From: Escherichia phage phiWec181 | Length of the DNA stretch: 64,000 bases | Sequence record: LC739534.1 | Direction: 5' to 3' (one strand) | Part shown: positions 9,712 to 59,495 of the stretch, piece by piece | Layout: each line of letters opens with the position of its first letter | Position numbering within the stretch: position 1 is the first letter of the stretch | Program-made: the position numbers and the translations under genes | Notes under the pieces: model-generated | The model's database searches: none | What the model was told of the DNA's origin: nothing | The model's input: only the letters and a program-made list of their open reading frames with translations

Positions 9712-10290
9712 ATGAGCAACCTATTTTACACAGGCGTGGGAAGTCGAGAGATAACCCACGAAGAATGGGATTTAATGGTCGCTGTAGCAAAGTGGTTGGC
9801 TAACTGTGGTTTTACTTTACGTTCAGGTAATGCAAACGGTAGTGACTCTGCTTTCGAAACAGGTGTGGAAGAATCCAAAAACAAATCTCTCAAGGAGATT
9901 TATATCCCTTGGGAGAAGTTTGAAGGCAATGATATTCCAGGTGAGAAAATAGTTCTTGCTAAACCTGACAGTATGAACTATGCTATCAGTCTCCAGTGGA
10001 TAAAGGATATTCATCCGGCATTTGATAAATTGAAACAAGGTGCACGTAAATTGCATCAACGTAACGTTCATCAGGTGTTGGGACAAGATCTGGAGCATCC
10101 AATTCCTTCTTTGTTTTTACTGGCTTGTTCCAAAGAAGATAAGAAGGGAGACGTTATGGGTGGAACACGGACGGCGTGGCTCATCGCTAAAGCTAATAAC
10201 GTTCCATGTTTTAACTTACGTGGTAAAACAAAGGAAGAACTTTATGCTTTTCTTAAACCGTTGGTCAAGGGGGCAATCAGTGGCAATTAA
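9712..10290 (+). CDS. SLOG/DprA-like Rossmann-fold protein (putative nucleotide-binding)
   Basis: GVGSREIT...LRSGNANGSDSAFETG resembles the DprA/Smf GxR...SGxAxGxDxAAH core; assignment tentative. Confidence 0.4.
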   Translation: MSNLFYTGVGSREITHEEWDLMVAVAKWLANCGFTLRSGNANGSDSAFETGVEESKNKSLKEIYIPWEKFEGNDIPGEKIVLAKPDSMNYAISLQWIKDIHPAFDKLKQGARKLHQRNVHQVLGQDLEHPIPSLFLLACSKEDKKGDVMGGTRTAWLIAKANNVPCFNLRGKTKEELYAFLKPLVKGAISGN

Positions 10291-10804
10291 GTTAAATCGT
10301 GCAAACGTAGGTAATCGTTTTAACCTTAGCCGTATAAACGAGGACGTAGATGTTACAGCAGATATTGAAAAAATCATGCAGGGTATTGTCCATCACGGTT
10401 TGCGTTTTGCCAGGGATTTGGTAATCTTCCGTTATGACGGAGAAGATGATCGTTCAAAGAATGATGGGATTATCTTCGTAGATAAAGATTTAACCCAAGC
10501 AGATATTGAACAGATCAACCGTTATTTTATTGGTGTAGGGGATCTTCAAGACACGCAGCTTGCACGTATGGCAGAAATTCTGGCGAATAAATTGTTGCAA
10601 GATATCGGAAAAGTTCTTGACAAAAATCCAAAACATGTTATAGTGACTATCCACAAAATGAGTTTTATTAAGTATCTTAACAAACCTGGTAAACTGGGTT
10701 ATGGATGGATACGCACAAGTGGACCACAAACCACTCTCGAAACCGAGATGTGCTATACAATTGAAGAAGTAAAACGTGAGGAGGAAGAGAATGGCGGAAT
10801 TTAA
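10280..10804 (+). CDS. hypothetical protein (~174 aa), GTG start
   Basis: In frame with ORF-track 10040..10804; GTG at 10280 preceded by AAGGGGG and placed just before the upstream stop; longer version would overlap upstream gene. Confidence 0.4.
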   Translation: MAIKLNRANVGNRFNLSRINEDVDVTADIEKIMQGIVHHGLRFARDLVIFRYDGEDDRSKNDGIIFVDKDLTQADIEQINRYFIGVGDLQDTQLARMAEILANKLLQDIGKVLDKNPKHVIVTIHKMSFIKYLNKPGKLGYGWIRTSGPQTTLETEMCYTIEEVKREEEENGGI

Positions 10805-11081
10805 TGAAGTGAAAAGTTACGAAAGCAATTTCGTAAGCAATTGGGAAGCATGGGATGAGATGGGTGTTGGTGAACTCTATTTCTACAATGTAACCCTTCG
10901 TCCAGAATATCAACATCTCATTCCAGAAGGCACTGTGCAGATCGGTATGTTCATGTCTTCTCAAGACGGTGTTGTGCAGTTTGAGTTTTACTCTGACACA
11001 GAACAGAACGAATTCACTTATCGTGCATTCAATATCGTATTAGCTTTAGGAGAGGAGAAATTTTATGACGACGAAGTATAA
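10791..11081 (+). CDS. hypothetical protein (96 aa)
   Basis: SD GAGGAGGAAGAGA upstream of ATG 10791. Confidence 0.45.
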   Translation: MAEFNEVKSYESNFVSNWEAWDEMGVGELYFYNVTLRPEYQHLIPEGTVQIGMFMSSQDGVVQFEFYSDTEQNEFTYRAFNIVLALGEEKFYDDEV

Positions 11082-11262
11082 AACAGTAGCAGAAGCACTG
11101 AAAGCAGCACACGAAGCCATTGCAGAAGCTGAACAATTGGCTGATGAAACTGGCACAAGTTTTCACTTCTCTGTTGAATATGGGATGGGTGGTACTTATG
11201 ACCCAGAAGATGAGAACGAATACACTGGGACCAACTGGCACCCATCTTCCCTCGGTTGTTAA
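11065..11262 (+). CDS. small protein, paralog family G (N-terminal helix, C-terminal Cys)
   Basis: SD GGAGAGGAG upstream; shares architecture with the next two ORFs. Confidence 0.45.
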   Translation: MTTKYKTVAEALKAAHEAIAEAEQLADETGTSFHFSVEYGMGGTYDPEDENEYTGTNWHPSSLGC

Positions 11263-11276
11263 TAAGGAGAAATAAA

Positions 11277-11495
11277 ATGAGTGATCGTAATGCACAAGCA
11301 TTAGCAGACAAAGCAAAAGAAATCATGAAGCTTGTGGATGCACTGGCAGCAGAAGCAGAAAAGGAAGGTTTCGGTCTTAGCTTAGAAAACAATACAATCT
11401 GTTTTGAAGATTGGCAGTCTTCTGCTTGCTATGGCGAAGCTGATGATGGTTTCACCGTTGACTCTGACGGTGTTTGGTATAGCAGTAATTGTTAA
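11277..11495 (+). CDS. small protein, paralog family G
   Basis: SD AAGGAGA upstream of ATG 11277; Ala/Glu-rich N-terminus, ends ...WYSSNC. Confidence 0.45.
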   Translation: MSDRNAQALADKAKEIMKLVDALAAEAEKEGFGLSLENNTICFEDWQSSACYGEADDGFTVDSDGVWYSSNC

Positions 11496-11504
11496 GGAGG
11501 GATC

Positions 11505-11774
11505 ATGTCAGAAGGTAGTGCCTTAATCAAGGCAAAAGTTAAAGAGATGGAAGAATCACAACAGAAGTTCCGCAACGAGATTGAAGAGCTTTGTGAGCAG
11601 TTCCAAGAACAAGCGTGGATCGGTGATTACGGGAATGGGGAAACTTACTACCCAACAGGAACAAACGCAGAAGAACATTATCTCACCTATATCTGCGGAG
11701 ACTATGATATTGAGATTGACGAAAACGGTCTGATGACCGAAGGTCTTTGGGTGTCTTCCTCGGAAATGTGCTAA
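11505..11774 (+). CDS. small protein, paralog family G
   Basis: SD AAGGAGGG upstream; ends ...WVSSSEMC like its neighbours. Confidence 0.45.
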   Translation: MSEGSALIKAKVKEMEESQQKFRNEIEELCEQFQEQAWIGDYGNGETYYPTGTNAEEHYLTYICGDYDIEIDENGLMTEGLWVSSSEMC

Positions 11775-11782
11775 TAAATAAT

Positions 11783-11808
11783 AACCCGCTTCGGCGGGTT
11801 TTTTATTG
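11783..11808 (+). terminator. rho-independent terminator
   Basis: AACCCGC-TTCG-GCGGGTT hairpin followed by TTTTTATT. Confidence 0.65.
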
Positions 11809-11816
11809 TGTGAGTG

Positions 11817-11845
11817 TTGACAAGACACGAAGAACCTGGTAGACT
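11817..11845 (+). promoter_or_regulatory. sigma70-type promoter
   Basis: TTGACA, 17-nt spacer, TAGACT upstream of CDS 11874. Confidence 0.4.
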
Positions 11846-11873
11846 TGTCTCATCAACTAAGAGAGGAGGATAT

Positions 11874-12812
11874 ATGAAAGTATTAATCGGTAGTCGTGCG
11901 TTGGAAATGATTTGTCGTTCTCGTGGTGTAGAACTGTATCGTGCTTGCGTAGATCTGGATTACCTCTGCACTGAAGAAGAGTGGCAAGCAGAAGCCCAGA
12001 AATTCTCGAAAGATCGTTTCGTAGAAATTGTTGAACGTAAAGGTAACAAAGGGCATATCAAAATGATCGCGGGCGCTCATCTGGAATATGATATTGCACA
12101 ACCAGGCGACTCTACAGATGCTTTGATTCAATACATCAAAGAGAATGCAGATCATCTGCCGCGTATTGGTTATGATGTGGTCGCGCCTTTGGATGTTTTA
12201 TACCTTCTGAAGATGAGTCACCGTTTTAAGAAGGACAGTCCTCACTTCCTGAAAACAATGAAGGATATCCACTTCATGCGTAACCTTGGAGCGAAGATCC
12301 CTGAAGAGTTGGAAGATACATACAAACTGCGTCAGAAGGAGTCCTATAATTACGGGCACCCTAATCTGAACGTGAAAAGTAAAGATTTCTTCAAGGGTGA
12401 TGAAGTGCCTTATGTGTATGATCACGATAGCCTGCACAGAGTTTTAGCTGTAATGGAGGAACCAGCTTACACGAACTACCTAAAGGATGGTAACGAGGTA
12501 ATGACAAGTAAAGATAAGTTCTATGCTGTTGACGAAACTACCAGATTGCTTGGGGTGTTAGAGGAGAGTTTGGTTCTGGCTTCGGAAAGGTGTCTAATAC
12601 CTTTCAACTACAGTGTTACAGGGAAGAAGGCATTTCTTATGGCTTTGACTAAAGTTTGCACTTCTATCACATCGGGCTACTTTCGAGAATATGCTTATGA
12701 AAAGTTCTTCCTTGTGTGTAAGGTATACGATAATATGTATCCTAACGACGAGTGGGTGGATACGTTAAGACAAGCCATAGATAAGGGGGCTGTTGATGTA
12801 TATAAAGCATAA
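11874..12812 (+). CDS. hypothetical protein (312 aa), possible minimal nucleotidyltransferase fold
   Basis: SD GAGAGGAGG upstream; N-terminal LIGSRAL...VDLDYL loosely resembles the GS...DxD NTase motif (weak). Confidence 0.5.
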   Translation: MKVLIGSRALEMICRSRGVELYRACVDLDYLCTEEEWQAEAQKFSKDRFVEIVERKGNKGHIKMIAGAHLEYDIAQPGDSTDALIQYIKENADHLPRIGYDVVAPLDVLYLLKMSHRFKKDSPHFLKTMKDIHFMRNLGAKIPEELEDTYKLRQKESYNYGHPNLNVKSKDFFKGDEVPYVYDHDSLHRVLAVMEEPAYTNYLKDGNEVMTSKDKFYAVDETTRLLGVLEESLVLASERCLIPFNYSVTGKKAFLMALTKVCTSITSGYFREYAYEKFFLVCKVYDNMYPNDEWVDTLRQAIDKGAVDVYKA

Positions 12813-13407
12813 ATATTTAGGAATCACAGACGAAGACTCCAAAGATGGAGAATTCGTCTACACGATCACAGCAGCGAATGGATACTACCAGACCCGTATA
12901 GGGGGTTTATGGAGAGCTTTAAATGCGCGGGTAGGTAAGGGATCATACACAAACGTATGTGTAGATTTTAAAGATTTCAAAGAGTTTGCCGAGAGTGTAA
13001 CAATATTAGCCAATTATAAAACATTAGATAGTTATGGGAACCACTATCACTTAGATAAAGACTTAAAATGTTACAAGAAGGATAAATCTTACAACAAAGA
13101 TTCAGTGCTGTTTATCCCTGGGCACTTAAATACCGCCTTGAAAGGTGTGATCCCTTACTTGGAGTGTGGGGCTACTTGTGGAGTCAGTTTTAGTAAGATT
13201 CGGAATAAGTTTCGAGCCTACTGTAATGATGGCGGTAGTAGACAGATACATTTAGGGTACTTCGAAAGTAAAGAAGCTGCTCAAAAAGCTTGGGTATTGG
13301 AGAAGATAAATCAAATAAAACGTTCCTTAATCAAAGAGAACATCTCGGACGAAGATATTTTGTATTTTACGGGTGTTTTGATAAGCGATTTAGAAGGAGG
13401 TTATTGA
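12793..13407 (+). CDS. AP2-domain-like DNA-binding protein (possible homing-endonuclease relative)
   Basis: C-terminal GVSFSKIRNKFRAYCNDGGSRQIHLGYFESKEAAQKAW matches the AP2 pattern common in phage HNH/AP2 endonucleases; nuclease motif not evident. Confidence 0.4.
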   Translation: MMYIKHKYLGITDEDSKDGEFVYTITAANGYYQTRIGGLWRALNARVGKGSYTNVCVDFKDFKEFAESVTILANYKTLDSYGNHYHLDKDLKCYKKDKSYNKDSVLFIPGHLNTALKGVIPYLECGATCGVSFSKIRNKFRAYCNDGGSRQIHLGYFESKEAAQKAWVLEKINQIKRSLIKENISDEDILYFTGVLISDLEGGY

Positions 13408-13408
13408 T

Positions 13409-13807
13409 ATGGGTTGGTGTGATCAGTCACAAAGTTACTTCAAAGTGACACATGTGGATCTCAACAAGGCAAGAGTGAAGCTGTTGAGTATTGAAAAAGA
13501 AACAGCAGCTATTGACAAACGCCTCCGAGAGAGTAAAGTGGTAATCACTTCTTGGTTCGGACTGAAACGTAAAGTCCTCACGCAGCGAGAGCATGTAATT
13601 AAAAATATGCATGGTTGGGCTTGGTTCCACGACATGGCAAAACACCTGGGGTACATTTCTACTGAAGAACACGACCTCTTGGAGCTACGTTATCGCCTTC
13701 CAGATGTAGAAGATTTAGATTTGTGGATCAGTTCCGAACAAATCTTCTTAACCGAGAGCGATTGGAAGAAAGTCAATATTTGTCTTAAATGGAGGGAGAA
13801 TGAGTAA
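13409..13807 (+). CDS. hypothetical protein (132 aa)
   Basis: ORF with SD GAAGGAGG upstream. Confidence 0.45.
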   Translation: MGWCDQSQSYFKVTHVDLNKARVKLLSIEKETAAIDKRLRESKVVITSWFGLKRKVLTQREHVIKNMHGWAWFHDMAKHLGYISTEEHDLLELRYRLPDVEDLDLWISSEQIFLTESDWKKVNICLKWRENE

Positions 13808-14483
13808 AGTAGTTTTATCAACATTTGATGGATCTGGGATCATGGTACTTCGTTACGCAGAAGCGGGACATAAATGCTATTGTGTAAATGCTGACGAAGG
13901 TGATCACGGGGCTTATGAAGTTCGCATGGAACATCCTAACATCACTTACGTGAACGCATGGATTGATTCCAACTTCAACCCTGAAGATTACGGTATTCCT
14001 AAGCCAGATATTATCTTTGGCTTCCCTCCATGTACCATGCTTGCTGGTTGCGGTAGTAAGCACGAACGTAGCGCAGAAGAGTTGGAAGAAGCTTTGGCTA
14101 ACATTCGTATCGTGGAAGCTTTAGGAAATAAATACAACGTTCCGTGGATGATTGAGAATCCGGTGGGTAAACTGTCAACATTGTGGCGTAAACCGGATTT
14201 CTATTTCGATCCTTACGAATATGGCGGATATCTGTTTGATGAAGAAGGCAGCTTCCACCCTAAAATGCCTACCCGTGACGGTTACACAAAGAAAACCTGT
14301 ATTTGGCATGGCAATGGTTTTGTTAAGCCTGTGAAGAAGCCTGTGGAACATATTGGTTGCTTCTGGGGCTGGAAAAGTTTAGGCGGAGCAAGTGCGAAAA
14401 CAAAGCAACTCCGATCGTTAACTGCTCGCGGTTTTGCTCGTGCTGTGTTTTTATCTAACAACCTTTTAGATAAGGAGGAATGA
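13800..14483 (+). CDS. compact C5-methyltransferase-fold protein (motifs I, IV, VI only)
   Basis: FDGSG (motif I), GFPPC (motif IV PC) and ENPVG (motif VI ENV) in canonical order, but only 227 aa with no room for a TRD or motifs VIII-X. Confidence 0.5.
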   Translation: MSKVVLSTFDGSGIMVLRYAEAGHKCYCVNADEGDHGAYEVRMEHPNITYVNAWIDSNFNPEDYGIPKPDIIFGFPPCTMLAGCGSKHERSAEELEEALANIRIVEALGNKYNVPWMIENPVGKLSTLWRKPDFYFDPYEYGGYLFDEEGSFHPKMPTRDGYTKKTCIWHGNGFVKPVKKPVEHIGCFWGWKSLGGASAKTKQLRSLTARGFARAVFLSNNLLDKEE

Positions 14484-51504: not shown

Positions 51505-51771
51505 ATGACAACTACTACATTACACCTTATGCACTCGTTAGGCTGGCAAGGCGGCACGGTCCACCAGGTAGCAAGCGCAACGGGCTTAAAGGTTGAAACA
51601 GTTCTCAACCTGGGCGATCATAAAGTGGAAGAGATAGACCATTTTGATCCGTTCGCTGATGGTTATCTCTGGGCTTGCAGTGGCGGCGGGGAAAGCAAGA
51701 TACCGCCAGCCGCGCGGGGCGATATGCATTTTTGGTTAGGTGTTCTCTCCTGGCAAGAAAACAAAAAATAA
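51505..51771 (+). CDS. hypothetical protein (88 aa) in GC-rich island, opposite strand to neighbours
   Basis: ATG 51505 preceded by GAAGAAAGGG; codon composition visibly more GC-rich than surrounding genes. Confidence 0.35.
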   Translation: MTTTTLHLMHSLGWQGGTVHQVASATGLKVETVLNLGDHKVEEIDHFDPFADGYLWACSGGGESKIPPAARGDMHFWLGVLSWQENKK

Positions 51772-51773
51772 TC

Positions 51774-51802
51774 TTGACAAGCCCAGGGATCGGGCTTATA
51801 CT
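51774..51802 (+). promoter_or_regulatory. near-consensus sigma70 promoter on + strand with no downstream SD-led ORF
   Basis: TTGACA, exactly 17-nt spacer, TATACT; downstream ~150 nt GC-rich with no convincing ORF. Confidence 0.5.
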
Positions 51803-52025
51803 GTTTTACATACAGAAGAGGAAGCGCCACCCCACGGCGTAAAGGCGGGGCTAACATACCAGGGGCACTGGTTGGAAGGTCGATCGCCGGGAGGCTGGGC
51901 GCTATATATTTGTAAAGAAATGTAAAGATAAAATAATCGCTTGCTTTCCTGGCTGGATCTGTTATTCTTATTACATGGCGAGGGGACACGGGAGCGCGAG
52001 ACAATCACCGGACCTGCCCGTCATT

Positions 52026-52140
52026 CTGCAAATGAGAAAAATTCTCATTTGCAAATAAGACTCATTCGCATTTAATAATTGAATGAGAATCATTCTCATT
52101 CTCATTCGTATTTCGATTTTAAGTGAGAATAATTCTCATT
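52026..52140. promoter_or_regulatory. three palindromic operator-like sites (AATGAGAAT-n-ATTCTCATT), Fur-box-like
   Basis: 27-bp perfect palindrome TGCAAATGAGAA-AAA-TTCTCATTTGCA at 52026..52052; further copies at 52082..52100 and 52121..52140. Confidence 0.45.
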
Positions 52141-52152
52141 TCGGTAATTTTC

Positions 52153-52338
52153 ACGTAAACTTTAGAATTTGCTTTTCAACTTTCACTTTTGTAAAAGCAA
52201 AAAAACTTTAAATACCTGGTGCGCGCGACTTTTTAAAAAATTTTTCTCGGTTTTTTGCTTTGAAATCTGGCCCACCAATTTGAGATAGTGTACGTAAACT
52301 TTAGAATTTGGTTTTGGATTCTCACTTTTGTAAACTCG
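52153..52338. repeat. pair of ~46-bp direct repeats in non-coding DNA
   Basis: ACGTAAACTTTAGAATTTG(C/G)TTTT...TTCTCACTTTTGTAAA at 52153..52198 and 52292..52338; TTGAGATAGT also repeated. Confidence 0.45.
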
Positions 52339-52483
52339 TAAAAAGTTTAAATAATTGTAGGGATTTTGAGATAGTTTGCTTGTAAGGTTTGAGATAATCC
52401 TTCCCGAAGATGTTACGCAGCCTACAGCCTACCTGAATGCTCGTCTAACGAGATTAACTCTAAAAGATGAGTGTTGGTGTAGC

Positions 52484-52521
52484 TAAAGAGAAAAGGCTCT
52501 CTACGGTGTTGTAGGAGCCTT
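52484..52521 (-). terminator. rho-independent terminator after NADAR gene
   Basis: AAGGCTC-N15-GAGCCTT hairpin followed by TTTTCTCTTT on minus strand. Confidence 0.45.
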
Positions 52522-52591: not shown

Positions 52592-53119
52592 TTATGGTAT
52601 TTTGGCTGGGAACAGGATTTTAATCAGATTGTTGTGGTATTGTCCTAAAAGATTCTGCCCTTTCCAGTTGGCAGGATTAAGCACCCCTGGTTCGTACATA
52701 CCCATTCCAATTCCGTAAACCTTATCATAAGGACTCGCCTCAACGAACGTTTTGAATTGGTACAGTCGCAAGTCAGAATAAAGATCAGGGTTCTGTGTAT
52801 ACTTCAAGCATAAGCCTCGCATTACGATACGCTCTCGGTACTCTTCCCACATGTCATTATTAAAACCAGACACCGCTCGACCCATGCGCTTGTAGTATGC
52901 CTGTCCCTTCTCGTCGTCACGCTTCATTGAGTGATCAAGGATAGCTGCTGCGATTACCTGATCCTTGAACAGCAAAGCCTTACGCCACATCATGTATTGC
53001 TCTACACAACAGAAAGTTTCATTGTACCCTGGTTCCGTCTCTGTGAATGGTGCAATGTACCAATTGCTAAACACATCTTTATGTGAAAAGAAGAATACAT
53101 ATTCATTAGTTATTCGCAT
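52592..53119 (-). CDS. NADAR-domain protein (YbiA-like, NAD/ADP-ribose processing family)
   Basis: N-terminal FFFSHKDVFSNWY and overall ~175 aa layout resemble NADAR/DUF1768 (YbiA). Confidence 0.65.
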   Translation of the reverse strand: MRITNEYVFFFSHKDVFSNWYIAPFTETEPGYNETFCCVEQYMMWRKALLFKDQVIAAAILDHSMKRDDEKGQAYYKRMGRAVSGFNNDMWEEYRERIVMRGLCLKYTQNPDLYSDLRLYQFKTFVEASPYDKVYGIGMGMYEPGVLNPANWKGQNLLGQYHNNLIKILFPAKIP

Positions 53120-53294
53120 TTTTCATGCCTCTTAAGACTTCAGCTTGCCCGTCTTGAAAAGCTTTCATCAGAACTATCTTAAGATTGACTTCCAAGCGTT
53201 CTTCATCCTCTTTATAACAATCCAACACTGCCTTAAGTTCATCATAGTGGTTCAGAATAGGTTTAAAGATTTCATGATCTGCTAAACGTGCCAT
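53106..53294 (-). CDS. hypothetical protein (62 aa)
   Basis: SD AAAGGAGAAAC upstream of ATG 53294. Confidence 0.45.
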   Translation of the reverse strand: MARLADHEIFKPILNHYDELKAVLDCYKEDEERLEVNLKIVLMKAFQDGQAEVLRGMKNANN

Positions 53295-53307
53295 AGTTTC
53301 TCCTTTG

Positions 53308-53673
53308 TTAGTCCATCCACCAGTAGCCATAAACTGCGTCTGCGTCGATGAGTTTGTGTTTGTTGTTCCGCATGTAGTCTAAGATAAGTAGACGTTTATT
53401 GTATCTGGAGAGATTATGACCCTCTTTTCCGCCATAGTCAAAATATTTTGCAAGACTTTTACACTCAAACAAAATCAGTTCGGGAGTTTCTTCACATTGG
53501 TCTGTCTGGTACACTTGACGGATGATCATGTATACGTCATCGTCTTCCGCTAAGTGCTCTACTGGTCCACACCCAGCAGGAATAAATTCATAGTCCCATC
53601 GAATCAGATGTTTCTCTACTGCTTCAAAGAAATCCATTTTTTCGCTACGCATGATCTGAACATCAATTAACAT
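53308..53673 (-). CDS. hypothetical protein (121 aa)
   Basis: SD CAGGAGGAAAA upstream. Confidence 0.5.
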   Translation of the reverse strand: MLIDVQIMRSEKMDFFEAVEKHLIRWDYEFIPAGCGPVEHLAEDDDVYMIIRQVYQTDQCEETPELILFECKSLAKYFDYGGKEGHNLSRYNKRLLILDYMRNNKHKLIDADAVYGYWWMD

Positions 53674-54679
53674 AATTTTCCTCCTGTCTCATTATTCCAC
53701 CTGCTTGGTTGATAGCACTTAAGACAACAGCCAAATCCTCACGCAGGAAGGTTTCACTATGACCGTCTTTCATGTGCAACGCTTCCACACAGCCGATAGA
53801 CGGTAGGATCTGATCAGTCTTAGATTTTAGCTTACTCTCTAACGCCCTGCAAGCCTGGTAGGACGGCAGATCAAACAATGCTACACGTTGCATAAAGTAG
53901 TTATTATTTGCATTCTGAATCTTCAAACGTATATCACTATCCTTTGCAATCCCCAGCTTGAAAGCTCCCGTATCTTCTCCATACTCATCAAGGATAACGT
54001 TGATGTAAAATTCTTGCTGTGATCTGCCTTTACATTCAGAACAACCATTCCCACTTAGATACTTATTAGGTGTTATCGTTTGTTCTCCGTGCTCACTACA
54101 TAAATATTTAAACTTAGACATGGTTCCCACCTTACCAACGAACCCTATAAACTGGTCCCCTCGTTCCTGGCAAGCTTCAGTCATACGGAAAATCCATTGC
54201 GCAGGAGTGTAACGATGGTTTTTAGAACAACGGCAAGCAAGCAGCCCATCTCTAAGACTGCTCCTCGTTACTTCAAACCTACCGTTACACACGCCAGCCT
54301 TTACATATTCGTCATGAGAACATACGGAACACTTAACTATCCAATAAGCCGCCCATCCTTTACTATCTAATCTATCACTACGATAATACTCACGCGGAAC
54401 GTTATCAGGACACGCTTTGTTAAAGGTTGTGATATGGATTGAATCATCAATTAAACATGTTTGCCTTATTGCTTCCACCCTACAACCTTTACAACCACTT
54501 CCTATTTTAGCATTATCTATAGAAGTTGTTCTCCATTCCCCATGTATAGAACATTCACAGGTTAGTTTAGTGCGTGCCCCCTTCCATTCACCATGCCACC
54601 CCGTAATGGTCCACGGTTTATCCTGGTAAGCTTGTTCTATTTCTTCCTGATATTCCTCCCAACTTTTAGCCCTCATCAT
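53663..54679 (-). CDS. T5orf172-like (GIY-YIG-related) domain protein with N-terminal CxxC zinc-ribbon repeats
   Basis: Repeated CxxC pairs, then C-terminal KLGIAKD...R...KDGHSETF resembling T5orf172; paralog of CDS 58247..59200. Confidence 0.5.
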   Translation of the reverse strand: MMRAKSWEEYQEEIEQAYQDKPWTITGWHGEWKGARTKLTCECSIHGEWRTTSIDNAKIGSGCKGCRVEAIRQTCLIDDSIHITTFNKACPDNVPREYYRSDRLDSKGWAAYWIVKCSVCSHDEYVKAGVCNGRFEVTRSSLRDGLLACRCSKNHRYTPAQWIFRMTEACQERGDQFIGFVGKVGTMSKFKYLCSEHGEQTITPNKYLSGNGCSECKGRSQQEFYINVILDEYGEDTGAFKLGIAKDSDIRLKIQNANNNYFMQRVALFDLPSYQACRALESKLKSKTDQILPSIGCVEALHMKDGHSETFLREDLAVVLSAINQAGGIMRQEENYVN

Positions 54680-54716
54680 CCCCCCTACAACAAATGCCCC
54701 TTGCGGGGCATCTTTA

Positions 54717-55856
54717 TTAGAACACGCTACTTAAGGTTGCAGATCGTGTAGTGGTTGGTTCCAGAACCACACGGAACGTATCCCCAGGTTTATCGCTCAC
54801 TACTACAATCTTACCACCTTCGATCAGGTCACACTTCAAACCTTCGGCAGTAGCTTTCAGGTCGATGCGTGGATCGCCATCATCATCCAGGATAACGTAG
54901 CTGCTATCTTCGAGAGGCTCCAGTTCTTCGTCTTTCACGGCTTCCAGGTAGATGTTCAGTTCACATGCACCAGACAAGAACTTGGTAGGAGTGAACTCAT
55001 GCCAGTTGTTGACCCAGTTAGGCTTGATAGCTTTACCGTTGACAACAATAGAGCTAATCGTCCAGCGTGCATCGTTACCCAGAGAGATACCCATCATCTC
55101 CAGACAGGTCTTGAACGTCATTTTCGGATAGAAGTTTAACTCTTCTACGATCCCTTGAATAACATCGAAAGACAGTTCAGTGCTAACATCCCACAAACGT
55201 TGGAAGCTTTCAACATGTTTGCGATTCTTCAGATTCTTGTCCAGGTAGTCCAGCATAGTTTCAATAGACAGTTTGTCGTAGTTGAAGCTATAGAAGATAC
55301 GGCTCGGACGGTTGACGAAGTATTCCGAGATGTATCCGCTGTTCTTTGTCAGCATGAACAGTTTGTTACCGCTACCTGTGCCATCCAGCAGAGTCAGCAG
55401 TGCTTCCTGATCTTCCTTCTTGGAATACACTTTGTCGAACTCATCGAACAGTACTACTGCGCGTTCAGAGATCTTACTCATGAACTCCAGGAAATTGGCA
55501 TCAGAATATGGCTGCGTTACCAGAATAGTTGGGATTCCCAGGTCTTCCGCTTCCAACAGAGTGTTACTGATCAGTTTTGCCAGCATTGTCTTGCCACTGC
55601 CTTTTGTACCCGACAACAGGACACCTGTGTTCTTACCTTCTTTACTACGACGAGCGAAGGTACGGATAACGTGGGCTGCACGTTCTTTGGTTTCCCCGTA
55701 CAGGCGATCAGGAATCGTGAACTTATCAGCGCGACTAAGAGAATAGTTACCATGTGGATCACAATTGACAGTCCAAACGCCAGCGGGGAGTTTATCAACC
55801 TCTACACCAAAATCTTTATTAACAATTGCAACATCCCCATAAACTGTGTATTTCAT
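54717..55856 (-). CDS. AAA+ family ATPase
   Basis: Walker A GTKGSGKT and Walker B VVLFDEFD; SD AGAGGAGAAAG upstream. Confidence 0.7.
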   Translation of the reverse strand: MKYTVYGDVAIVNKDFGVEVDKLPAGVWTVNCDPHGNYSLSRADKFTIPDRLYGETKERAAHVIRTFARRSKEGKNTGVLLSGTKGSGKTMLAKLISNTLLEAEDLGIPTILVTQPYSDANFLEFMSKISERAVVLFDEFDKVYSKKEDQEALLTLLDGTGSGNKLFMLTKNSGYISEYFVNRPSRIFYSFNYDKLSIETMLDYLDKNLKNRKHVESFQRLWDVSTELSFDVIQGIVEELNFYPKMTFKTCLEMMGISLGNDARWTISSIVVNGKAIKPNWVNNWHEFTPTKFLSGACELNIYLEAVKDEELEPLEDSSYVILDDDGDPRIDLKATAEGLKCDLIEGGKIVVVSDKPGDTFRVVLEPTTTRSATLSSVF

Positions 55857-55879: not shown

Positions 55880-55916
55880 ATAGACGTATTATCTCTTGTC
55901 TAATACGTCTTGTCAA
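55880..55916 (-). promoter_or_regulatory. sigma70-type promoter overlapped by 10-bp inverted repeat (operator-like)
   Basis: TTGACA, 17 nt, GATAAT; inverted repeat AGACGTATTA / TAATACGTCT spans the spacer and -10. Confidence 0.45.
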
Positions 55917-57064: not shown

Positions 57065-57310
57065 CTAATAATGTTTTAAAGTCCACTCAATACCTGACGG
57101 GTAACTGCCTCGACAAATCTTACCATCGGAATGCCAGTTAATGCTATCAGGGAAAGTATGATTTAGTGTTTTTTCATGAGGAAGCCATTCTGTAGGCTTC
57201 TCTCCACCATTGATCCATACAAAACCTTCGTCTTCCAGTAAACCTAAAGCAAACTCCATCTCTTCTGCATCGTGAACCGTTACTTTCTGACCTTTCTGTA
57301 ATTTAATCAT
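57065..57310 (-). CDS. hypothetical protein (81 aa)
   Basis: SD TAAGGGGG upstream. Confidence 0.5.
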   Translation of the reverse strand: MIKLQKGQKVTVHDAEEMEFALGLLEDEGFVWINGGEKPTEWLPHEKTLNHTFPDSINWHSDGKICRGSYPSGIEWTLKHY

Positions 57311-58112: not shown

Positions 58113-58157
58113 TTTGTTCTCCTCTCACATTAGGACACGTTTTGTGTCGATGGGTGT

Positions 58158-58186
58158 AGATTACGTGAGCACAAAGGGGTTGTCAA
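58158..58186 (-). promoter_or_regulatory. sigma70-type promoter
   Basis: Minus strand TTGACA, 17 nt, TAATCT upstream of CDS 57825..58112. Confidence 0.45.
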
Positions 58187-58194
58187 CTACTTAT

Positions 58195-58222
58195 TGACAA
58201 AAATTTCTAAACGTTGTAAATT
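58195..58222 (+). promoter_or_regulatory. sigma70-type promoter, divergent from 58158..58186
   Basis: TTGACA, 16 nt, TAAATT upstream of + strand CDS 58247. Confidence 0.45.
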
Positions 58223-58246
58223 AAAAACATCTACAAAGGAGGAAAC

Positions 58247-59200
58247 ATGAAATACGAAGATTTTAAACAAATAGTTAAAGACGATGTGGTATTTGAGAAC
58301 TTACAGGAAGGTTGTGAAGTCTTAGGTTGGACAGAAAGAGATAGAAACTTTGCAAAAATATACGTAATACGTTGTAGTGTTTGTGCCAAAGACCCCGAAA
58401 TGTATGGAGATGGTCTTTTTACAGCTACAAAAGGGCGTTTAGTGAAAGGTCAGAAATGTTGCGCGTGCGCTGTATCCTTTAAATACAGTCAAAACCAACA
58501 CCTAATTCTGCTAAACAGGCATTTAAGTGTCGCAGGGTACAGCATAGTTTCTATTGGTGCTTGGGAGTGTTCTAAGACGAGAATAGAGTTTAGTTGTGAG
58601 AATGGACACACGAAGAACAGAACCCTGGCTCAAGCAAAGGTAGTAGAACCTTGTAAACAGTGTCTTGAAGAAGGCTGTACAAAACACAAACAAGATGAGG
58701 CAGAGGCAAAAATTATGAAGATAATAGAAGATAAATGTTTACCTTATGTATTTGTAGGGTGGGATACTTCTTACAAGAATGTAACTTCAAAATTCAACCT
58801 CATCTGTTCGGATCACGGTTTAAAAACAATAAGATACGCTTGTTTCCTAAATGGTCATTTTTGTAACGAGTGTTCTGGTAGAAATTGCCTAAGTCTTTAT
58901 TTATTAGGAGTTTATGATAGAGACTTGTTGGTAGGTTTAAAATTTGGCATCTCTCAGAGTCCAGTAAGAAGGGTTCAACAGTTAAATAAAAGGAACTTAT
59001 TTAAATGTAAAATACTACAGATTTGGACTTTTACATCACATGATCAAGCTGTACGGATGGAAACATTATTAAAGAACACATTGCGAACTGGAATATTTAC
59101 TAAAAGAGAGATGAAAGATGGTCATACAGAAACCACAGAAGTTACTAATTTAGAAACCATAATGGACCTTATGACCTCATCTCATGGATTGGTTAGTTAA
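58247..59200 (+). CDS. T5orf172-like (GIY-YIG-related) domain protein with CxxC repeats; + strand gene inside minus-strand block
   Basis: Repeated CxxC pairs, then C-terminal KFGISQS...R...KDGHTETT; own divergent promoter; SD AAAGGAGGAAAC upstream. Confidence 0.5.
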   Translation: MKYEDFKQIVKDDVVFENLQEGCEVLGWTERDRNFAKIYVIRCSVCAKDPEMYGDGLFTATKGRLVKGQKCCACAVSFKYSQNQHLILLNRHLSVAGYSIVSIGAWECSKTRIEFSCENGHTKNRTLAQAKVVEPCKQCLEEGCTKHKQDEAEAKIMKIIEDKCLPYVFVGWDTSYKNVTSKFNLICSDHGLKTIRYACFLNGHFCNECSGRNCLSLYLLGVYDRDLLVGLKFGISQSPVRRVQQLNKRNLFKCKILQIWTFTSHDQAVRMETLLKNTLRTGIFTKREMKDGHTETTEVTNLETIMDLMTSSHGLVS

Positions 59201-59495
59201 CAAAAACCTTAACATTTCCGATGTTCTTGCTGACTTCTTGTGAGAACATTGAAAGTACCTTGTCAAGCAGTTTTACTAATTCATTTGTAATTTGTTCCTC
59301 TGAACGAGAAGAAGTAAGTACCTTACTCTCACCAACGATGTGCATCACCTTGATAGGAGCATTCAGGATAACATTGTGCTTTTCATCTTCTTCGAAAGAT
59401 GCTAACCACTTCTCATTATTCCCGTGCAAAGCCACGATAACACCAAAACCGTTAATAGTTTGTGAAATGTTCTTAGTTGCTAATGTAATGTTCAT
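59193..59495 (-). CDS. hypothetical protein (100 aa)
   Basis: SD AAGAGAGGTGA upstream; 3' end overlaps 3' end of + strand gene by 8 nt. Confidence 0.5.
   Translation of the reverse strand: MNITLATKNISQTINGFGVIVALHGNNEKWLASFEEDEKHNVILNAPIKVMHIVGESKVLTSSRSEEQITNELVKLLDKVLSMFSQEVSKNIGNVKVFVN

Follow-up and report, generated by a model that had tools for sequence, protein, structure and literature searches.

Whether neighboring genes on one strand of a phage genome act together is the question raised by a locus of Escherichia phage phiWec181. In the 64,000-nucleotide stretch of this phage that we analyzed (LC739534.1, hereafter the window), the minus strand encodes, in order of transcription, a AAA+ ATPase of 379 amino acids (aa), a 338-aa protein with CapR zinc modules and a T5orf172-type nuclease domain, two small proteins (orf121 and orf74) and a 175-aa NADAR-domain protein. 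A first-pass annotation had listed these five open reading frames (ORFs), all of which are present on the same strand, and had raised the idea that they form one functional system countering ADP-ribosylating host toxins. The region is 100% identical to that of Escherichia phage phiWec179 (LC739533.1; Stephanstirmvirinae, filed as Phapecoctavirus), whose deposited record calls the same five genes, each labeled "hypothetical", and the paper describing the phiWec phages makes no mention of them. Our analysis indicates that the five genes are very probably three independent elements that happen to be neighbors in a region of accessory genes of a Stephanstirmvirinae phage, and not a multi-gene system. 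This reading draws on the gene identities, residue conservation, insertion/deletion (indel) difference and gene distributions determined here, and on the published anti-DarT1 activity of an ortholog of the NADAR protein.

The first-pass annotation had held that a lack of co-conservation across phage genomes would speak against a common system, and the genes are indeed not co-conserved. Homologs of the ATPase were found in 394 phage records (Stephanstirmvirinae, jumbo phages, Lahexavirus, Grimontviridae, Herelleviridae, Lactococcus 949-like and crAss-like phages) and NADAR proteins in 718 records, mostly from myoviruses of Staphylococcus, Listeria, Enterococcus and Bacillus. Among phages present in both family searches, the two genes are separated by ~9 kb in Lactobacillus Semele, ~19 kb in Enterococcus phage 156 and ~179 kb in Yersinia fHe-Yen9-04. 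When the ±10 kb around 63 confirmed IMG/VR ATPase loci were scanned with local hidden Markov models, a NADAR gene lay within 10 kb of the ATPase at five loci, namely four Stephanstirmvirinae contigs (L013–L016) and one jumbo phage (L075), and at none of the other 58; the CapR nuclease was found near the ATPase in the same four Stephanstirmvirinae contigs only. Clustering of the same-strand ORFs within ±5 kb of 75 ATPase loci from 34 lineages recovered no family in more than four lineages, with nicotinamide phosphoribosyltransferase (NAMPT) present in four and a metallophosphoesterase, a PhoH-like protein and a membrane protein in three each.

The gene order downstream of the ATPase varies as well. 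In ESCO13, the ATPase is followed by the nuclease, orf121, orf74 and NADAR, whereas Justusliebigvirus has the nuclease and NADAR without the small ORFs, and phiWec188 has orf121, orf74 and NADAR without the nuclease. In Citrobacter Tr1 and the related IMG/VR contig L017, NADAR and the nuclease are both absent and the ATPase is followed by an orf74-like gene (in Tr1) and then by a DUF6939 gene, while the L018 group retains only a weak orf121 homolog. The DUF6939 protein (PF22075, E 2e-7) occupies the position of NADAR in Tr1 (L003, 8365–8982) and in L017 (11385–11999), and its homologs occur mostly in jumbo phages (130–618 kb contigs). We considered whether it is a hidden NADAR. It shows a faint Pfam match to the DarT1-associated NADAR (E 0.023), but BLASTP and PDB searches returned nothing, and an hhalign comparison of a 14-sequence DUF6939 profile with a 118-sequence NADAR profile gave a probability of 0.1%. 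With no relationship to NADAR detectable, we rejected this identity.

Two observations weigh against full independence. The ATPase-(nuclease)-NADAR adjacency has been retained in no fewer than three groups of genus rank within Stephanstirmvirinae (Phapecoctavirus, the phiWec group and Justusliebigvirus), and the unrelated 490-kb jumbo phage L075 carries a NADAR gene 2.3 kb downstream of its ATPase homolog; a lineage-specific functional link between the ATPase and NADAR is possible for these reasons. The same two facts would also suit a single operon-encoded counter-defense system against ADP-ribosylating toxins, as would the common strand, the tight spacing, the one strong promoter upstream and the one terminator downstream. 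The ATPase might, for instance, first remodel or clear away the toxin or stalled complexes, leaving NADAR to clean the DNA. We nevertheless consider such a system highly improbable. The nuclease is dispensable between phages that are 96–98% identical, the small ORFs are missing from Justusliebigvirus, the ATPase occurs without NADAR in Tr1/L017 and in L018–L020/L037, and 58 of the 63 ATPase loci lack a NADAR gene within 10 kb. NADAR is in turn common in Kayvirus and Listeria phages that are not among the ATPase matches, AdfN^Bas60 (the characterized ortholog described below) is sufficient alone, and a hairpin with a U-run separates the ATPase from the other four genes. Hence, the proposed action against ADP-ribosylating toxins is supported for the NADAR part, whose ortholog neutralizes DarT1 experimentally, and is not supported for the cluster as a whole, the genes of which are not co-conserved.

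The transcription signals are consistent with separate units (Table 1). The operator-overlapped promoter reported in the first pass exists as a promoter-like site overlapped by a palindrome. The palindrome occurs once in the window, with 0 copies expected by chance; it was not found as a recurring motif in the 64 kb, where its single arms occur at chance level, and is at most a putative operator. Both promoter and palindrome are kept only in phiWec188 and PsgM04F, while ESCO13, PHB05, Bas60, Tr1 and GAP32 have unrelated sequence in front of the ATPase. Another promoter-like site lies within the gene cluster, at 53441..53413. The further claim that this promoter drives all five genes is weakened by the strong hairpin and U-run directly after the ATPase stop, a hairpin that is present at the empty site of phiWec188 as well. 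The terminator-like hairpin after NADAR is predicted to close the transcription unit. At the other end, the minus-strand gene run extends upstream to 58112, and the five genes are therefore not a self-contained operon.

Table 1. Coordinates of the genes and other features discussed in the text (numbering of the 64,000-nucleotide window; dG, folding free energy; z, fold z score)
Feature	Position	Strand	Basis or remark
NADAR, 175 aa	52592-53119	-	ORF; phiWec179 record calls same gene
orf74, 74 aa (deposited as 62 aa, 53106-53294)	53106-53330	-	ORF; phrog_22330
orf121, 121 aa	53308-53673	-	ORF; phrog_24465
CapR/T5orf172 nuclease, 338 aa	53663-54679	-	ORF; inserted block 53685-54691
AAA+ ATPase, 379 aa	54717-55856	-	ORF; phrog_2376
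Second CapR/T5orf172 paralog, 317 aa	58247-59200	+	PF21817 E 1.5e-20; MUG113/T5orf172 near threshold; phrog_681 E 5.9e-59
Ultraconserved DNA island, 300 bp	53185..53484	.	orf121 3' part and orf74 start, adjoining the endonuclease insertion site
Sigma-70-like promoter, TTGACA-17-GATAAT	55916..55888	-	sequence; 11/12 matches
Perfect 10-bp palindrome AGACGTATTA N9 TAATACGTCT	55882-55910	-	overlaps promoter spacer and -10
GC-rich hairpin, GCAA loop, and U-run	54693..54712	-	directly after ATPase stop; dG -19.6 kcal/mol, z -3.65
Terminator-like hairpin, then UUUUCUCUUU (U-run)	52485..52521	-	after NADAR; dG -19 kcal/mol, z -4.44

The NADAR (YbiA-like) identity first proposed for the 175-aa protein is well founded. 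PF08719 (E 1.2e-33, 117.1 bits versus a cutoff of 35.1, residues 11–161) and TIGR02464 (109.7 bits versus 73.7) both match above their curated cutoffs, and the Phytophthora nicotianae NADAR (PnNADAR):ADP-ribose complex (PDB code 8BAU) is matched with an E-value of 1e-13. Alignment to 8BAU, with residue roles from Schuller et al. (PMC11543638), places E40, K47, K77, R81, E127 and D132 of the window protein at the positions of PnNADAR E43, K50, K75, R79, E125 and D130, respectively, and the aromatic Y135 in place of W133. Every residue that contacts ADP-ribose or is required for catalysis in the P. nicotianae and E. coli C7 NADAR proteins is thereby kept. AdfN^T4 (gp30.3) and the NADARs of DarG1 belong to the same fold family and carry out the same reaction, the removal of ADP-ribose from guanine N2 in DNA, but at the position of E127 the enzymes of T4-like phages have His and the DarT1-linked antitoxins have Asp. 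The Glu assigns the window protein to the NADAR/YbiA type, which accounts for the names "YbiA-like N-glycosidase" and "GTP cyclohydrolase II" deposited for its relatives. It also differs from DarG1 in its surroundings, as no DarT toxin gene lies beside it and no ADP-ribosyltransferase (ART)/DarT domain was found in the neighboring proteins scanned. PADLOC matched the protein to the candidate family PDC-M42C only.

A guide to its function comes from bas60_0111 of phage Bas60 (PaulScherrer, MZ501100.1), which occupies the same position, after the ATPase and an endonuclease, and is 57% identical to the window NADAR over 172 residues (E 4e-68) with the catalytic motifs intact. The NADAR of BASEL phages Bas60–62, which are phi92-like phages now placed in Justusliebigvirus (Stephanstirmvirinae), has been characterized as AdfN^Bas60 (Johannesman et al., bioRxiv PMC11257639; Nat Commun 2025, PMC11825919), so the anti-DarT idea is already published for this ortholog. 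Expressed alone, AdfN^Bas60 restored the replication of three DarTG1-sensitive phages by several logs; it neutralized DarT1 without infection and did not counter DarTG2 (PMC11257639; PMC11825919). Because of the 57% identity and the synteny with this experimentally characterized protein, we read the window NADAR as a predicted AdfN-type orphan antitoxin-like DNA ADP-ribosylglycohydrolase, a function inferred by orthology. During infection, it would hydrolyze the N-glycosidic bond between ADP-ribose and the guanine N2 to which host DarT1 attaches it on phage DNA; this removal would let replication proceed in DarTG1-carrying hosts, with NADAR acting alone. Both proteins are stand-alone, single-domain products of the same phage subfamily and have the motifs VEQYMMWRKA, YYKRxGR and FVEASPYD in common, whereas the window phage has two extra small ORFs between the nuclease and NADAR. 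AdfN^T4 acts specifically on modified T-even DNA, a restriction that AdfN^Bas60 does not share. Since Glu-type (NADAR/YbiA) enzymes also remove cytidine-ADP-ribose, unlike the T4 and DarG1 enzymes, the substrate range of the predicted window enzyme may be wider.

Some caution is imposed on this assignment by the 43% of residues that differ between the window NADAR, whose function is predicted, and AdfN^Bas60, and by the reports that E. coli YbiA and, in a single study, T4 gp30.3 gave no protection from DarT1 in cells despite their activity in vitro, owing to which in vivo NADAR specificity is not readable from sequence. The protein might be inactive on ADP-ribosylated DNA in vivo and be a YbiA-type N-glycosidase instead, whose substrates would be reactive riboflavin intermediates or soluble immune signals derived from ADP-ribose. 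Such a role would agree with the name of the matched family TIGR02464 ("riboflavin biosynthesis intermediates N-glycosidase"), with the YbiA-type Glu, with the failure of E. coli YbiA to rescue DarT1 toxicity and with an Aravind-lab survey which argued that phage NADARs target mostly small ADP-ribose derivatives. It is nonetheless an unlikely one, given that the syntenic ortholog AdfN^Bas60 neutralizes DarT1 in cells and restores replication on DarTG1 hosts, that guanine-ADP-ribose is removed by all NADAR families tested in the literature, and that no riboflavin genes were seen adjoining NADAR.

The 338-aa protein owes its reported CxxC repeats to three CapR zinc modules (PF21817, E 1.1e-26, 93.2 bits versus a cutoff of 24.2, in three stretches), and it matches phrog_681 ("endonuclease"). 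The paired-Cys zinc motif of CapR (CxxC ... CxC) is present, with the ligands C117/C120/C149/C151 and C194/H197/C213/C216 invariant and C43/C63/C66 nearly invariant among homologs. Its C-terminus had been called T5orf172-like, which is borne out for the family, in that, of 14 homologous C-termini, 12 yield a match to T5orf172 (best E 9.5e-6) and eight a match to MUG113. The region has the elements of the GIY-YIG fold with a conserved Tyr (β1), x-I-G (β2), Arg (α1) and Glu (α2), and the nuclease motifs and catalytic-type residues are invariant among homologs. Searches of the PDB with the single sequence and with a C-terminal-domain profile gave no matches, nor did PADLOC.

The relationship between this gene and its surroundings is apparent from phiWec188, which does not carry it. 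The window interval 53685–54691 is reduced to 9 bp in that phage, with flanks that are 95.6% and 98.0% identical. The insertion separates, at precise junctions, the hairpin that follows the ATPase stop from the ribosome-binding site (RBS) of orf121, and brings its own RBS. This clean presence/absence difference, which we regard as decisive, and the published architecture of phage homing endonucleases, namely CapR modules plus T5orf172 (PMC8096241, PMC10448857), are the reasons why we assign the 338-aa gene as a predicted free-standing homing endonuclease gene with a divergent T5orf172/GIY-YIG nuclease domain. The gene came to lie between the ATPase and NADAR by chance, through its insertion there. 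In the mechanism that we propose, the gene would have entered the 9 bp separating the ATPase terminator hairpin from the orf121 RBS, the three CapR modules would bind DNA, the GIY-YIG/T5orf172 domain would cut it, and the gene would spread through double-strand-break repair in mixed infections. What weighs against the assignment is that the window copy itself falls below the T5orf172 cutoff (12.9 bits versus 20, E 0.17, covering profile positions 3–98 of 101), and that cleavage and homing are predicted activities of this protein.

The CapR/T5orf172 endonucleases of ICP1 and other phages (Netter et al. 2021, PMC8096241; Barth et al. 2023, PMC10448857) share with the Stephanstirmvirinae family the N-terminal CapR/DUF723 Cys4 repeats, the C-terminal T5orf172-type GIY-YIG domain, a variable number of repeats, several paralogs per genome and a patchy presence between relatives; they differ in that the nuclease domain of the window protein is divergent and that cleavage and homing are predicted activities throughout the Stephanstirmvirinae family. 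All homologs carry CapR/DUF723 zinc modules, the variable number of which is seen in proteins of 331, 338, 390, 467 and 486 aa in the relatives. The window itself contains a second paralog (Table 1), and this is also an indel, the interval 58157–59244 not being shared with phiWec188. The second paralog sits in a divergent-promoter region, where phiWec188 has a 163-aa ORF instead. An 81-aa gene at 57065–57310 is absent from phiWec188 too (unshared part 57067–57303).

A domesticated rather than selfish protein would be another way to account for the 338-aa gene, either as a sequence-specific repressor comparable to the satellite protein CapR or as an anti-satellite or anti-competitor nuclease comparable to ICP1 Odn, which would benefit the phage. 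The ICP1/PLE system offers precedents for both, with CapR modules turned to use as a repressor and T5orf172 as a nuclease against satellites; in the window, a unique palindrome overlaps a nearby promoter, and the strict conservation of the nuclease motifs implies selection on activity. However, patchy presence in near-identical genomes, intergenic insertion with its own RBS, two paralogs at different sites and variable module number are classic signs of a free-standing homing endonuclease, and no satellite or target was identified here. We hence hold domestication to be improbable and retain the homing endonuclease assignment.

Downstream of the insertion site, the two small ORFs matched only PHROGs without a function, with nothing in Pfam at lenient thresholds and nothing in PADLOC. 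At the amino acid level, orf74 and orf121 are each 96% identical in ESCO13. A 38%-identical homolog of orf74 is present in Citrobacter Tr1 and the gene is absent from Justusliebigvirus, while orf121 is absent from both Justusliebigvirus and Tr1 and has a weak homolog (24% identity, E ~1e-6) that immediately follows the ATPase gene of the L018 group.

The DNA of these small ORFs includes a 300-bp island that is 96–100% identical in all 70 related phage records (Phapecoctavirus-type). Between phiWec179 and ESCO13, nucleotide identity is ~73% in the ATPase and ~87% in NADAR, rises smoothly to 98–100% in the island and decays on both sides of it. Comparison of the window with Phapecoctavirus DIJ07P1 in 300-bp windows gave a median of 77% and a 99th percentile of 96.3%, with a single maximum of 99.0% that coincides with the island. 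NADAR separates the island from the second-best block against DIJ07P1 (51651–52050, 97.0%). It is thus flanked by the window's two most conserved blocks (51651–52050 and 53051–53600) and is itself ~86% identical to DIJ07P1, a layout that would allow cassette exchange by homologous recombination. In orf121, we counted 13 synonymous and five non-synonymous changes in 122 codons compared, the corresponding counts for the ATPase being 167 and 74 in 380 codons. Because synonymous changes are depleted, protein-level selection alone is insufficient to explain the conservation. A structured RNA was rejected as far as the tools used here allow (fold z +1.1, no Rfam match at E<=1).

The best available idea for the island, although unproven, is homogenization by recombination around the cut site of the homing endonuclease. 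The free-standing Seg/Mob endonucleases of T4 are intergenic, have their own RBS and lie between conserved genes, as does the 338-aa gene. Endonucleases of this type are expected to cut a nearby endonuclease-less allele and to drag flanking markers along by co-conversion, which would fit the identity peak beside the 338-aa gene. They differ from the window protein in their DNA-binding modules, and the explanation is left unproven by the fact that the endonuclease-less phiWec188 carries the same island. In its full form, this idea would make the endonuclease and the island a homing-driven exchange hotspot, in which repeated cuts near the orf121/orf74 junction would be repaired in a way that drags orf121-orf74-NADAR between co-infecting Stephanstirmvirinae. 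The bracketing of NADAR by conserved blocks, the smooth decay of identity from the island and the synonymous depletion are all compatible with such a hotspot, which we put forward as a speculative and rather improbable proposal.

The AAA+ identity given to the 379-aa protein stands, with PF00004 matched at E 3.5e-9 (37.6 bits versus a cutoff of 21.2) and phrog_2376 at E 6e-109. Invariant in 32 homologs are the Walker A residues G83-K85-G86-G88-K89-T90, the Walker B pair D138-E139, the sensor-1 residue N172 and the Arg fingers R183/R186, which lie in an NRPSRIF motif resembling the second region of homology (SRH). An AlphaFold2 (AF2) model (pLDDT 84, pTM 0.71) displays a small N-terminal β domain, the AAA core, a lid and a β-rich, lineage-specific C-terminal domain. 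The top Foldseek matches (Bcs1, Bacillus subtilis YjoB, proteasomal Rpt/Mpa, NSF and FtsH) are all of the classical clade, with the AAA module alone aligned. Judged from its sequence, the protein is a catalytically intact classical-clade AAA+ ATPase. It has in common with classical AAA+ remodelers (Bcs1, YjoB, Rpt/PAN/Mpa and the FtsH AAA module) the Walker A/B motifs, the sensor-1 Asn, the SRH-like NRPSRIF with two invariant Arg residues and a helical lid. It differs from them in that only the AAA module aligns (TM ~0.4), that its N- and C-terminal domains are unique and that it has neither a protease domain nor an obvious aromatic-hydrophobic-Gly pore loop.

Most likely, the ATPase is a protein remodeler or unfoldase acting on some host or phage protein. 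The pore-loop segment between β2 and α2 reads QPYSDANF, in which only the aromatic Y117 is commonly kept; as a canonical pore-loop motif is missing, substrate threading is no more than a possible activity. No Peptidase_M41 match and no HEXXH were found in the 379-aa sequence. The labels "FtsH-like protease" (in BASEL records) and "Zn metalloprotease" are over-readings, since there is no protease domain and the likeness to FtsH is confined to the AAA module. PADLOC gave only weak P-loop noise for the protein. In our reading, the ATPase passes down vertically in many families of large virulent phages, and does so irrespective of NADAR.

Some observations on the ATPase family concern its copies and neighbors elsewhere. 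Justusliebigvirus-type (L014/L031) and Tr1-like (L017/L028) genomes have two paralogs, one full-length and a second that is ~46% identical over residues 3–274, and the window has one copy only. In L075 (IMGVR_UViG_2974583807_000001, 9938–13859), the ATPase homolog is followed directly by a bona fide ClpP protease (NF001368, 314 bits), a hint that the family might feed a protease. The four lineages with NAMPT within 5 kb of the ATPase are L007, L036, L039 and L068, and in GAP32 (L005, 1–922) a nicotinamide mononucleotide adenylyltransferase and PnuC lie 6–7 kb upstream. This loose theme of nicotinamide adenine dinucleotide (NAD) salvage may merely reflect shared accessory regions.

Beyond the five genes, the gene-free stretch downstream of NADAR (52027–52353) contains four copies of a 19–21-bp palindrome, AATGAGAAnnATTCTCATT (52030–52141), and two 62-nt direct repeats (52153–52214 and 52292–52353) that are 84% identical; these repeats look iteron- or operator-like. 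Farther on lies the only plus-strand gene here (51505–51771), which is 92–94% identical at the amino acid level even to Justusliebigvirus. Directly after its stop, the interval 51774–51905 (plus strand) holds a near-consensus promoter (TTGACA-17-TATACT, 11/12) followed by ~100 nt of GC-rich sequence that forms a long stem (fold z −1.9 on the plus strand, −2.6 on the minus strand). This GC-rich sequence has no Rfam or tRNA match, and is possibly a small RNA, at ~51810–51905. Finally, records named "Pseudomonas phage PsgM04F", several "Campylobacter phage" and "Acinetobacter phage ABPW7" (OR584014.1, MG065645.1, OP562383.1) are 92–99% identical to E. coli Stephanstirmvirinae in this region, and their host labels look doubtful.

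Taken as independent genes, the five neighbors would remove a tempting but in all likelihood false "system" from the candidate counter-defense operons; being neighbors in a single subfamily of phages does not amount to evidence for a function. Names can now be given to genes deposited as "hypothetical" in phiWec179, in the form of a predicted AdfN-type anti-DarTG1 enzyme, two putative homing endonuclease genes and a classical AAA+ ATPase. The ATPase is catalytically intact and conserved in hundreds of large virulent phages, and a 300-bp coding segment beside a putative homing endonuclease stays virtually unchanged in its nucleotide sequence across a genus whose members otherwise differ by 20–35%. 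If the exchange hotspot were real, a selfish element would spread and homogenize an anti-DarT counter-defense gene through the phage population. For the phiWec-type phages, a group of therapeutic candidates, the predicted consequence of carrying this NADAR is resistance to DarTG1, not to DarTG2.

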